The notes beneath the pieces are model-generated. The model was not told the DNA's origin. It saw nothing but the letters and a program-made list of their open reading frames with translations, and did not search any database. From positions 1 to 16,324 of the forward strand of contig CAYLZE010000113.1 in NCBI GenBank assembly GCA_964388035.1: a DNA stretch of 16,324 nucleotides. The letters run 5' to 3'. Shown piece after piece: positions 1 to 4,463 of the stretch. The DNA is from an uncultured archaeon (GTDB lineage Archaea > Asgardarchaeota > Lokiarchaeia > Sigyniarchaeales > SOKP01). The translations under genes were made by a program, and so were the position numbers. The first letter of the stretch is position 1. Every line of letters begins with the position of its first letter.

Positions 1-292
1 TATTCCACGTTATTTTCTCTGAAGATGAGCCCACTATACCTCGATCGATTATATCAAAGGTATTTCCGAATTTATCAATTAATTCTCTTATTGGGAGACT
101 TAAATCTGAGGCAGTCAATACTTGACCCCCAATATTCGCAAGACAAATATTCTGTGCAGAAATTCCGAACTTTTTAGAAATTTCTGGAACAATATCCATT
201 AATTTCAGAGTGGGGGCAACTGGAAAGGGAATTTGTTTTTTTTCGGATCCAAATTTATTGATAAAGTATATTGTATTTAATTCTGATGCCAT
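1..292 (-). CDS. UFM1-like ubiquitin-fold modifier with C-terminal extension or fused domain (partial, runs off the left edge)
   Basis: Manual translation from ATG at 292: MASELNTIYFINKFGSEKKQIPFPVAPTLKLMDIVPEISKKFGISAQNICLANIGGQVLTASDLSLPIRELIDKFGNTFDIIDRGIVG-SSSEKITWN..., with no stop before position 1. KFGNTFDIIDRGIVG aligns ungapped with the human UFM1 C-terminus KHGSELRIIPRDRVG as recalled (7/15 identical, single-Gly VG end). SD-like GTGAGGA upstream. Next to E1 and JAMM genes. Confidence 0.8.
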   Translation of the reverse strand, partial: MASELNTIYFINKFGSEKKQIPFPVAPTLKLMDIVPEISKKFGISAQNICLANIGGQVLTASDLSLPIRELIDKFGNTFDIIDRGIVGSSSEKITWN

Positions 293-331
293 TTTGGTTA
301 ATCCTCACAATACGTTTAATATTCTTTTTCA
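293..331 (-). promoter_or_regulatory. Putative internal BRE/TATA-like promoter plus Shine-Dalgarno-like site for the UFM1-like gene
   Basis: Minus strand reads GAAAAAGAATATTAAACGTATTGTGAGGATTAACCAAAATG: purine run, AT box about 25-30 nt before the ATG, and GTGAGGA just upstream of it. The AT-rich background limits specificity. Confidence 0.35.
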
Positions 332-356
332 AACATTACCATGATTGATAATAGTT

Positions 357-1574
357 TTAATTTTGCAATTTTAAATCTAAGGTTTTATATATAATTTTAA
401 TTTTTTCATTAATTATATTTTTCCATTTAAAATTCTTTGAATATATTTCTACATTAATTAAAAAATTATTAATTTGTTGTTTTTCTTTTTCTTTTAAAAT
501 ATTGCTTTGAAAAGTATTAAAGAGATTCAAAAATTTGATAATTATATTAAAATATTTATCCGAAAAGTTATTTTCAATTAAAAATTTGTGATGATGATAT
601 AAAACATTTAGTTTAAAACCGAATAATTCCAAGCAAAAATCAGAAGGAATAAGAATTTCCTTTTTATTTATATTTATTCTACAATACTGTATTTTTTGAT
701 TGATATTTTCACGTAATTCTGTTTTAATTACCACGTTTAAATCGTTTAATGTAAAAGTATTATTATTAATATAAACGGGAAACTCCGCTATTAATTTCAA
801 TTGAAGTTGAACTATATCAGCTTTGTTACTTTCTTCATTGCTTATATCAATTGTTATTACGTCATTCTTATCATGCCTTAATTTTGAATCTAATTTAGCG
901 GGAAATTTTAGATGTATAAGATTATTTGATAAAGCATTAGTTACGTAGGTGAAAATAGGTTCATTTAGGGAAATTTTCTTTTTTTCCTCATGATATTCCA
1001 TGTCTTTCCAAATTTTTTCAAGAAAATTAGTTAAGGCTACCAGCATTTTCATTTTCAATTTATTTATTTCAGAGTTCTTGGCGAAATAATTTTTAGGAAC
1101 ATTAATTTGAAACCACTCATTGAAATTCACCATTAAATGCTTTGGTACCAAGGGTATAATATCTTTAACAAGTAATTTACCAGAGGTCTTCCCGTTTTCA
1201 ATCTTATAATAGTTTATTTCATTACCCGTAATTACCAAGGATACAGTATTGTTAAATAAATTAACTTTATCAGCTAACATGTTATCATCAATGTGACTAT
1301 GAAAGATCTTACTTGAAGGAGGATGTGAATGATAGATTCCAATTGGGCCAATCCCATGAGGCATTACTGAACTTATTAGTTGAAACTCTTCCACTACTGG
1401 AATTGCACTGACGGGAGTTTGTTCAATAAATTGTTCACAAGGAGCAATACCAAGAATATTAAGTGTATCGTTTTCGGGATATCCCAAAAGCCAACCATAA
1501 ATTTCATTTTCATTTTCTGTGGCTTGAGTTTTTAAAGAATGGAGCAGACTTTCTGAAATTTGTAGTGTACTCAT
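357..1574 (-). CDS. JAMM/MPN+ metalloprotease with ODR-4-like C-terminal region
   Basis: N-terminal E24 (NEIYGWLLG) and GIYHSHPPSSKIFHSHIDD (H82, H84, S93, D96; HxH-x8-SxxD). About 270-aa C-terminal extension with blocks resembling ODR-4. Confidence 0.85.
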   Translation of the reverse strand: MSTLQISESLLHSLKTQATENENEIYGWLLGYPENDTLNILGIAPCEQFIEQTPVSAIPVVEEFQLISSVMPHGIGPIGIYHSHPPSSKIFHSHIDDNMLADKVNLFNNTVSLVITGNEINYYKIENGKTSGKLLVKDIIPLVPKHLMVNFNEWFQINVPKNYFAKNSEINKLKMKMLVALTNFLEKIWKDMEYHEEKKKISLNEPIFTYVTNALSNNLIHLKFPAKLDSKLRHDKNDVITIDISNEESNKADIVQLQLKLIAEFPVYINNNTFTLNDLNVVIKTELRENINQKIQYCRININKKEILIPSDFCLELFGFKLNVLYHHHKFLIENNFSDKYFNIIIKFLNLFNTFQSNILKEKEKQQINNFLINVEIYSKNFKWKNIINEKIKIIYKTLDLKLQN

Positions 1575-1583
1575 CTTTCTTAG

Positions 1584-2417: not shown

Positions 2418-2431
2418 TTTTAATGGGATTT

Positions 2432-3514
2432 TTAATACCTCATTATTTTTGGAATTTTAGAGATTTTATTGCAATATTTGCATTTCACAATTCCGTTTAC
2501 TTCCACTTTTTCTATAGGTAAATCGGCCCCACATTCCGGACATTGAACATTCACTACTTCGACCTTTTGTTCTATCCCTTGTTTTAATGCCGTAATTCTT
2601 TTATCATATTTTTTCAATATCGTATTGATTTCGTTCATATTCTCTCCAGAAACCCAAAGTAATAATGTTCCTGAAGCTCCGGATGCGATTACTTGTAAAT
2701 CAATCAGATAAGGTAAGGATGATTTAGAAAAGAATACAAATACAATAGATCCTAAATAGTCTTCTTGATGATCATTAAAAAATTCTTCCGTGGGTTCTTC
2801 AATTATATCAAGTCCTTTAAAAATATCTACTACAGATTTAAACAAATGGGATGCATTGGTTGCTTTAAATTGATACTTTAGCCCCTTGCTCGGATAATTT
2901 TCTTGCTTTATTTTTTTAATTAATTGAATCGTGTTCATTTCTACTTGTTTATTGATGATCTCTACCCGCTTTCTTTGATGATCCAAGGCAAATTTTTTAA
3001 TTTTTAACAACGTTTTTTCATTATTTTTCTCAATGATGATACGCGTACGGTCTCCTATAAAGACGGGAGGATTTGGTATGGTATAACTAATTATTCCTGA
3101 CCCGATTATTGGGGCGCCCTCATTCCAGGGAATTAGAAAACTAATTTCTCTTCCAATATCAATTATTTTATTTTCAATAGAAGGTTTTATTATTGAAGTC
3201 CATTCTCCTCTGCTTATTAAACTATAATTATTTGATATATGAATATGAATTTCTAAAGCCTCGGCGGGATTGTATTTGATAACGTTAACCTCGTCATTTT
3301 CTGCAAAATTTTCCAAAATCCGTTTATCGATAAATATTTTTTCATCTTCGGAAAATTCTAATCCTTCAATTTTGGTAATAATTGAAAAAGTCTTTGTGGG
3401 AGAATTTGAGATTAAAAAAATGGTATCTCCCTCTTTAAATCTCCTTAAGTTTTCTTCAGTACCTTGTAAAATACAGTTTTCTCGATATTGAGGAATAATT
3501 TTGAAAGGAGACAT
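2432..3514 (-). CDS. Cdc48/p97 N-domain-like protein with C-terminal Zn-ribbon, no AAA ATPase domain
   Basis: Residues about 1-163 follow the CDC48_N/CDC48_2 pattern (KEGDTIFL; IFIDKRILENF..NDEVNV; PAEALEIHI; IISYTIPNPPVFIGDRTRIII). C-terminal CPECG...CKYC (C325-C348). No Walker A motif. Confidence 0.65.
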   Translation of the reverse strand: MSPFKIIPQYRENCILQGTEENLRRFKEGDTIFLISNSPTKTFSIITKIEGLEFSEDEKIFIDKRILENFAENDEVNVIKYNPAEALEIHIHISNNYSLISRGEWTSIIKPSIENKIIDIGREISFLIPWNEGAPIIGSGIISYTIPNPPVFIGDRTRIIIEKNNEKTLLKIKKFALDHQRKRVEIINKQVEMNTIQLIKKIKQENYPSKGLKYQFKATNASHLFKSVVDIFKGLDIIEEPTEEFFNDHQEDYLGSIVFVFFSKSSLPYLIDLQVIASGASGTLLLWVSGENMNEINTILKKYDKRITALKQGIEQKVEVVNVQCPECGADLPIEKVEVNGIVKCKYCNKISKIPKIMRY

Positions 3515-3527
3515 GTAAGGATAAAAA

Positions 3528-4463
3528 TTAATTATTTAGTTTTGCATCAATTTTCAGGATATCTTTTTCTAATTCATTAATAAAAGTTAGAATTTGTTCT
3601 TTCTTATTTTCGTATTCGTCTTGAGAAATTTTATCGTCTATTAATGAATCTTGAAGTTGTTTTAGCTTTCTTTTTAAATTTTTGATTCTCTCTTTTAATT
3701 CATCCTTTTCACGAATTAGAGTTTCCAAATTTTCAATTTTAGAATCATCGATAATTCGGGTTTGAAGTTTTTCTTGATTATACAAATCCTTCATTTCTTC
3801 TGGTGCCCTTACTCCGATAATATTAAATGTTTCTAAATCTAAACCGTATCTGAAAAATTCTTCAGTCATCTTCGAAGTTATCAAATGAATAACTCGCTCA
3901 CGATCTTCCAATAATATCGATTTAGCATCATAATTTTTAAAAATATCTCTCAAGGAAGTATGCAAGAGAGTTATGATCCAGTCTTTTAAATTCTGAACCC
4001 TCCAATCATTTTTTCCGGCAATGATATCGTTGTAAAATAGCTTGACATTCGAAATTTTTAACTTTAAATCTCCATATAATCCCACCATGTATCCATCCTT
4101 AGTAGGAATCCCCGAGGAACGGGGAATTCCCCATGGAATTTCAATTAAGGATGAATCAATCCAGACAATTTGAGTTCCTTTTATTCGTGCTTTTTTTTCA
4201 AGTTTATAAATGCCCCCGCTTAAAATGCCTACCAATTGGCCTTTATCAAAAAAAAGTGCTTTTTCATAATCTTTTACCGCAAAAAATTTTTTCTTCTTAA
4301 TATTATCTCCTGCTCCCGGAAAAGTAAACATTAAAGGATAGTTACCCTCAAATTTATCACTTTTTTCCCAAGCTATAATTTCGGGATCCTTATCATTAGC
4401 TCTTTTGTCTTTTGCTTCTTTATAGTAAATATTGGCCACAAATACTTTTATATCTTTATCCAT
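3528..4463 (-). CDS. Soluble SPFH (Band 7/YdjI-like) domain protein with coiled coil and SHOCT-like C-terminus
   Basis: VKDYEKALFFDKGQLVGILSGGIYKL; IPWG..SGIPTKDG; FFRYGLDLETFNI. SHOCT-like LQDSLIDDKISQDEYENKKEQIL. No hydrophobic N-terminal anchor. Confidence 0.8.
   Translation of the reverse strand: MDKDIKVFVANIYYKEAKDKRANDKDPEIIAWEKSDKFEGNYPLMFTFPGAGDNIKKKKFFAVKDYEKALFFDKGQLVGILSGGIYKLEKKARIKGTQIVWIDSSLIEIPWGIPRSSGIPTKDGYMVGLYGDLKLKISNVKLFYNDIIAGKNDWRVQNLKDWIITLLHTSLRDIFKNYDAKSILLEDRERVIHLITSKMTEEFFRYGLDLETFNIIGVRAPEEMKDLYNQEKLQTRIIDDSKIENLETLIREKDELKERIKNLKRKLKQLQDSLIDDKISQDEYENKKEQILTFINELEKDILKIDAKLNN

Follow-up and report, generated by a model that had tools for sequence, protein, structure and literature searches.

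We describe a gene cluster in an uncultured archaeon of the Lokiarchaeia (GenBank assembly GCA_964388035.1) that very probably encodes an archaeal UFM1-type conjugation system, which shares common ancestry with eukaryotic UFMylation and may be deployed as an accessory stress-response or antiviral module, the role that we favor. It lies at the end of contig CAYLZE010000113.1 (G000:C113), the whole of which (16,324 nucleotides) is the window analyzed here, in a genome of 5.5 Mb and 33% GC. The eukaryotic UFM1 pathway comprises UFM1, UBA5, UFC1, UFSP1/2 with ODR4, and UFL1-DDRGK1-CDK5RAP3. In the archaeal cluster, a tag, an activating enzyme (E1), a carrier enzyme (E2) and an MPN protein find their respective best matches in UFM1, UBA5, UFC1 and the UfSP N-terminal region/ODR-4, and as 34 Asgard genomes preserve this set its interpretation as a UFM1 pathway is well supported. 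The original prediction, made from the sequence of the window, had proposed a precursor of UFMylation coupled to membrane-protein quality control. Its recognition of a UFM1-type system holds, but the E1 tree does not single out Asgard archaea as the donor and the system is not confined to Asgard archaea, also occurring in Thermoplasmata (see below).

The tag forms the first 88 residues of its open reading frame (ORF), and its V87-G88 pair is invariant in the alignment of relatives (22/22). This pair had been taken for the terminus of the modifier; instead, the frame runs on after G88 with SSSEKITWN, the first residues of a UFC1-like E2 joined to the tag, and then leaves the contig. The closest relative, which has the same upstream neighbors, is a 269-aa protein in which VG is followed by STSDEKEWN and which displays the complete tag-E2 fusion. 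Further, a contig from an independent run spans positions 1-175 and continues beyond the window's edge at position 1; neither an indel nor any other change is listed for it at the junction. The UFC1-like E2 that had been predicted to lie left of position 1 was thus found as a fusion partner, with its first nine residues in the window and the whole domain in relatives. Since the tag is a precursor fused to the E2, its G88 is not free until cut. For fold comparison we used an AlphaFold2 model of a fused relative (predicted local distance difference test score, pLDDT, 89.5), which is 81% identical over the tag. The modeled tag aligns with UFM1 at Z 13.5 (root-mean-square deviation, rmsd, 2.0 over 86 residues), as against Z 10.8 for the next ubiquitin-like protein (Ubl) outside the UFM1 group and Z 9.9 for archaeal ubiquitin; judged by this model, the tag is a UFM1-type beta-grasp fold.

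Among 32 tag-E2 junctions, 10 are fused, 18 have a tag stopping at VG and four have tails of 1-3 residues, such that 14 tags (the fusions and the short-tailed versions) require cleavage. Where the two genes are separate, the E2 often begins at a start codon that overlaps the Gly codon and the stop codon of the tag. It could be argued that the fusion is never cut, with the UFM1-like domain being a docking module on the E2, or that this copy is inactive, and UFM1-like domains without a terminal VG do begin longer proteins in some Asgard genomes. However, VG is retained in all 10 fusions, the tag ends exactly there in the 18 loci noted above, and the protease site is intact. Moreover, the fused state is scattered on the tree, with at least three changes (six by parsimony), and a single fused clade is rejected (approximately unbiased test, p-AU 5e-7). 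We accordingly see a slim chance for an uncut fusion and continue with the tag as a cleavable modifier. The domains without the VG were observed in frames of 345-616 aa (G145:C213, G146:C536, G147:C10, G149:C1), in some cases in genomes without an E1 match. One locus (L048, 10167-10491) has a short duplicate of the last 15 codons of the tag between the tag and the E2.

With just nine of its residues in the window, the traits of the E2 are read from relatives. These possess a UFC1-type E2 fold with an N-terminal extension and a catalytic-type Cys. In the fused-relative model the E2 aligns with UFC1 at Z 15-16 (16.1; rmsd 2.7 over 152 of 158 residues), the next E2 reaching Z 8.8; among Pfam families UFC1 ranks first for 20 members (best E 6e-10), and it is also the first PDB match by sequence. 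The Cys of an IC-x-x-H motif is invariant in the Asgard and Thermoplasmata E2s and, by its likeness to C116 of UFC1, is taken as the probable catalytic residue.

The MPN protein retains the JAMM metalloprotease site, with E24, H82, H84, S93 and D96 being invariant across Asgard and Thermoplasmata; going by this conservation, the enzyme should be active. The best sequence match of its MPN domain is CsRpn11 of Caldiarchaeum subterraneum. A model of the protein (pLDDT 88) has the C. elegans UfSP as its top Foldseek match, with positions 1-379 aligning to the UfSP N-terminal region over 280 residues (Z 14.0, rmsd 4.9), whereas ordinary JAMMs align over just 125-150 residues at similar Z. The two best rows in the Atlas are likewise ODR-4 (TM 0.61, 323 residues) and UFSP2 (TM 0.62, 321 residues), followed by a match at 0.44, and the Pfam ODR4-like profile weakly matches 2 of 26 JAMM relatives. 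ODR4 is an inactive MPN protein, and the C. elegans UFSP2 has the same MPN domain (PMC10952357). The ODR-4-like MPN protein claimed earlier is thus upheld in its fold, but neither the inactive MPN nor the C-terminal membrane anchor of ODR-4 is seen here, as the JAMM residues are all kept and there is no hydrophobic segment. The whole-fold match of the model to the UfSP N-terminus and ODR-4, together with the intact JAMM site, suggests that this enzyme is the likely maturase of the tag; the operonic JAMM in turn looks like the ancestor from which ODR4 and the UFSP2 N-terminus derive as inactive forms. No C78 cysteine protease (UFSP) is present in the operon and a genome search matched none, though its control matched nowhere. 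The 3' part of the JAMM gene (357-900) has a GC content of 19%, compared to 30% for the operon.

The operon, traced by its E1, occurs in 34 of 400 Asgard genomes, with its gene set conserved across them, and in 19 of the 134 genomes of the family; the one other genome of the genus gave no match. Relatives carry the labels Promethearchaeota/Lokiarchaeota. The JAMM is present in 34 of 35 E1 loci and the tag/E2 in 31, several loci being cut by contig ends. One carrier (G138; 6,035,313 bp) matches the cultured Ca. Lokiarchaeum ossiferum B35, and two closed carrier genomes of 3.08 and 3.33 Mb fit those of Heimdallarchaeum. Beyond Asgard, contigs labeled Thermoplasmata/Methanomassiliicoccales (one record being of 2.5 Mb) bear a four-gene operon with a tag ending in VG, a UFC1, a UBA5-like E1 and the same JAMM, which establishes that the core is of four genes and not Asgard-only. 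In these versions (L101 5519-8203; L105-L110) the JAMM has a 14-residue insert inside the metal site, and the operon often adjoins a DZR zinc-ribbon gene. Two Asgard loci (L034 and L043; G227 and G241) have several related genes (cluster c4) lodged among the genes of the operon and next to it, and G241 has two operon copies.

The five best matches of the E1 in a PDB search are all UBA5 (159-172 bits), followed by MoeB at 88 bits, and in a search of 1.84 billion representatives eukaryotic UBA5 makes up most of the matches that follow the Asgard ones, alongside a few archaeal proteins. It is a minimal E1, in which C190 aligns with C250 of UBA5, the catalytic Cys inside the adenylation domain, just as had been predicted, and it has a Zn site formed by C171/C174/C243/C246. 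Its C-terminal helix resembles the UFC1-binding sequence (UBS); a comparable amphipathic tail is seen in most relatives but is absent in about six. A sulfur-carrier system of the MoeB/ThiF type would accord with Pfam and NCBIfam, which name the E1 only as ThiF family. However, it falls below every NCBIfam cut-off, an E2 whose Cys is invariant consistently accompanies it, and no cofactor or rhodanese genes were seen in the cluster. Further, in an LG+C20 tree the Asgard, Thermoplasmata and eukaryotic proteins, with a few unassigned sequences, form one UBA5-like clade (100/97), and a constrained grouping of the Asgard E1 with MoeB/ThiF is rejected (p-AU 0.017), which renders a sulfur-carrier function extremely unlikely. 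One additional E1 of this clade (P0158 in L102, 306-7182), with no tag or E2 seen nearby, is preceded by genes for an SMC protein and a primase large subunit and by two kleisin/winged-helix-like ORFs.

Within the UBA5-like clade, the Asgard, Thermoplasmata and eukaryotic groups are each separate. Patchy occurrence in two distant archaeal groups might be read as late acquisition of these genes from eukaryotes. Yet, the archaeal groups fall outside a separate clade of eukaryotic UBA5 (100/100), the archaeal genes are laid out as an operon, and their JAMM has an active site where eukaryotes have an inactive MPN; we therefore regard such an uptake as very improbable. As for the donor, FastTree places Thermoplasmata adjoining eukaryotes (0.94) and IQ-TREE places them weakly with Asgard (59.5/64), while neither an Asgard-eukaryote (p-AU 0.44) nor a Thermoplasmata-eukaryote sister grouping (p-AU 0.46) is rejected. 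Given that either archaeal group may be sister to the eukaryotes and that Thermoplasmata have the four-gene version, we name no donor. On balance, we consider it reasonably probable that the UFM1 core (tag, UBA5 and UFC1) with one active JAMM was an archaeal operon predating eukaryotes. In eukaryotes, the JAMM would then have been duplicated and lost its site, giving rise to ODR4 and the UFSP2 N-terminus, with a cysteine protease assuming its cleavage role and the E3 being recruited from an unrelated winged-helix protein of Asgard (UFL1/DDRGK-like).

The Asgard core is accompanied by three accessory genes. First, the p97-N adaptor domain that had been proposed holds up in profile comparisons as a two-lobed CDC48-N domain: aa 11-168 of this protein probably correspond to the N domains of the genome's own CDC48 (hhalign 90.5%, E 1.3e-6, 149 columns), the 13 controls attaining at most 0.2%. 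This domain was missed by sequence searches of Pfam and the PDB, and the ESM Atlas gave no usable match. The remainder of the protein consists of a middle domain without assignment and a C-terminal Zn ribbon (C325/C328/C345/C348), and there is no ATPase domain. Its predicted complex with the tag-E2 fusion scored 0.49 (runs 0.68/0.00/0.49) as against 0.00 for the best control, with contact agreement of at least 0% and partner pLDDT of at least 79. Of 80 solved complexes 58 reach the mark for such scores, as do 2 of 110 mismatches; since just seven of the former and both of the latter do so at 0.60 or less, this model weakly hints at an interaction. In L. ossiferum (L054 5170-6564) a winged-helix (ESCRT-II-like) tail replaces the Zn ribbon, and the tag and E2 of this locus are transcribed away from the E1-JAMM pair. 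Second, the SPFH/Band-7 domain was confirmed in a 311-aa protein with no transmembrane helix. Third, the cluster has a sixth co-oriented gene, omitted from the original prediction, which had five; it encodes a 461-aa protein homologous to the winged-helix partner in other loci (hhalign 97.6%), and that homologue matches EAP30 (EAP30/Vps36-type). As this gene travels with the operon, being in 17 of 35 loci with its homologue in seven more, it belongs to the cluster.

Taken together, these components suggest the following route of conjugation. The tag and E2 are made as one polypeptide, as seen in the sequence here and in relatives. By analogy to bacterial Type I Bub, the JAMM would cut after G88 to release a tag ending in Val-Gly and a UFC1-like E2. 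The conserved residues of the UBA5-like E1 indicate that it would adenylate G88 and form a thioester at C190, from where the tag would move to the invariant Cys in the IC-x-x-H motif of the E2. Attachment to target lysines might then take place without a RING or HECT E3, perhaps with the CDC48-N/Zn-ribbon protein, the best candidate, as an adaptor; the SPFH and ESCRT-II-like proteins might conceivably be targets or scaffolds. The JAMM probably also removes the tag from targets.

Several observations weigh against the UFM1-type interpretation. The rest of the E2 lies beyond the contig end and is absent from this assembly, and the fold model of the fusion is that of a relative rather than of this protein. 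The tag scores below the threshold of Pfam Ufm1 (E 0.037 at best in Asgard and 0.008 in Thermoplasmata, with 0 of 400 Asgard genomes passing) and was not identified in Pfam and PDB sequence searches, so that its assignment rests on the predicted fold and context. The archaeal E2 alignment has neither the TAK motif of UFC1 nor an HPN motif, and by inspection the archaeal E1 tails have no W-G-I-type motif of the UFM1-interacting sequence (UIS), which is present in one eukaryotic match. UFL1-like genes occur in 114 of the 134 family genomes, as against 19 for the operon, and are unlinked to it; in this genome a single 789-aa protein (G000:C7:51450-52334), near-universal in the family, matches both the UFL1 and DDRGK profiles. 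Finally, no target or E3 was identified for the system.

Comparison with known systems places the cluster closest to the eukaryotic UFM1 pathway. The two share a UFM1-fold tag ending in Val-Gly and made as a precursor, a minimal E1 with its Cys in the adenylation domain, a UFC1-fold E2 and a protein of UfSP-N/ODR4 architecture. They differ in that the archaeal genes form one operon with the tag fused to the E2, the protease is a JAMM with an intact site rather than a C78 cysteine protease, and the TAK motif, UIS, membrane anchor and linked UFL1/DDRGK1 are lacking. Asgard Ufm1 homologues have been published as a lone gene (Koestlbacher et al., 2026; PMC12962969); the main text of that study is silent on UBA5 and UFC1, and it records no Ufm1 from prokaryotes other than Asgard archaea. 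Picchianti et al. (2023; PMC10183829), who noted archaeal UBA5 homologues, restrict UFM1, UFC1 and UFSP2 to eukaryotes and describe UFMylation as a mosaic with bacterial and Asgard contributions. The tag and E1 are probably of the same families as these homologues, but neither study describes the operon. In the bacterial Type I Bub systems (BubAB, BubCD, BubE), JAMM cleavage of a Ubl-E2 fusion is proven (PMC11601596). The archaeal system has a comparable Ubl-E2 fusion, a JAMM that would cut it, a putative homodimer-type E1 and no E3; however, Bub features Tyr/Ser oxyesters, a JAMM-E1 fusion and BubE, whereas the archaeal set keeps the Cys and its parts are UFM1-pathway-like. The operon of Caldiarchaeum subterraneum (Ub, E1, E2, RING, Rpn11) is another archaeal operon with a JAMM, in which CsRpn11 has been shown to trim the tag precursor (PMC6043591). 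Unlike the present system, it has a Gly-Gly ubiquitin, a canonical E2 and a RING E3, and the host studied here carries such a set separately, as a ubiquitin/E1/E2 cluster on contig C42. A further canonical E2 match in this genome (G000:C38:34206-34655; L127) has one in-frame TAG.

What might such a system do? We tentatively favor an antiviral or stress-response conjugation island comparable to the bacterial Bil/Bub systems, a role compatible with the chemistry proposed above. It would accord with the patchy spread of the operon, flanks that vary between loci, the logic shared with Type I Bub, and the separate ubiquitin cluster of the host. Against it, PADLOC gives only generic E1-E2 profile matches, the upstream flank here consists of housekeeping genes as in the closest relative, and the tag is highly conserved (~80% within the family). 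The other role to be considered is housekeeping membrane-protein quality control foreshadowing ER-linked UFMylation. Here, one may point to the SPFH (26/35 loci), CDC48-N (31/35) and ESCRT-II-like (24/35) genes traveling with the Asgard core, and to the ODR-4/UfSP-N fold of the JAMM. However, the six proteins all lack transmembrane segments, the Thermoplasmata operon is without the three accessory neighbors, most Asgard genomes do not have the operon, and the UFL1/DDRGK-like gene is uncoupled from it and far more widespread. Consequently, the membrane-protein quality-control link in the original prediction appears weak and this role rather doubtful.

Features of the cluster and its upstream region in the window
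Feature	Position	Strand	Remarks
UFM1-like tag (aa 1-88, ends V87-G88) and first 9 residues of UFC1-like E2, in-frame	2-292	-	truncated by contig end
JAMM/MPN+ metalloprotease, active site complete	357-1574	-	C-terminal part like UfSP/UFSP2 N-terminal region and ODR-4; no tail anchor
UBA5-like E1	1584-2417	-	C190, Zn site, C-terminal helix
CDC48/p97-N-like domain protein, candidate adaptor	2432-3514	-	assigned by hhalign
SPFH/Band-7 protein, soluble	3528-4463	-	C-terminal coiled coil
Tandem winged-helix protein (461 aa), ESCRT-II (EAP30/Vps36)-like	4522-5907	-	
TATA-like box	4487-4494	-	24-31 nt upstream of SPFH start; chance level

The five co-oriented genes from the SPFH gene to the tag are separated by gaps of 13, 14, 9 and 64 nt, as originally described, and the sixth lies 58 nt upstream of the SPFH gene. 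The TATA-like box said to precede the five genes does exist, but the AT-rich window contains such boxes about as often as chance predicts (14 observed as opposed to 11.1 expected), and promoter scans of the window returned nothing above chance.

Our literature searches on the pathway, with most subscription papers outside their coverage, found no publication describing the operon. A linked archaeal set of tag, E1, E2 and protease changes the picture of a lone-gene Ufm1 and of UFC1 and UFSP2 as eukaryote-only, and suggests where the pseudo-enzyme ODR4 and the N-terminus of UFSP2 probably came from. With a four-protein, E3-free system available for reconstitution and a cultured carrier in L. ossiferum, it becomes possible to test how a pathway portrayed as largely restricted to eukaryotes originated.

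In the rest of the window, a 147-aa protein (13708-14151) combines two hydrophobic helices with a CxxC...CxxC zinc ribbon and has no confident family. Ordinary genes, namely those for PheA, PheRS beta and alpha, a cytidylyltransferase-like (CoaD-type) protein and an acyl-CoA ligase, occupy 8409-13564 and 14401-16044. The RNase PH gene (7445-8173) looks bacterial-type in sequence and is flanked by genes for a GDP-mannose dehydratase on one side and a chorismate mutase/prephenate dehydratase on the other, an order that is also seen in L068.

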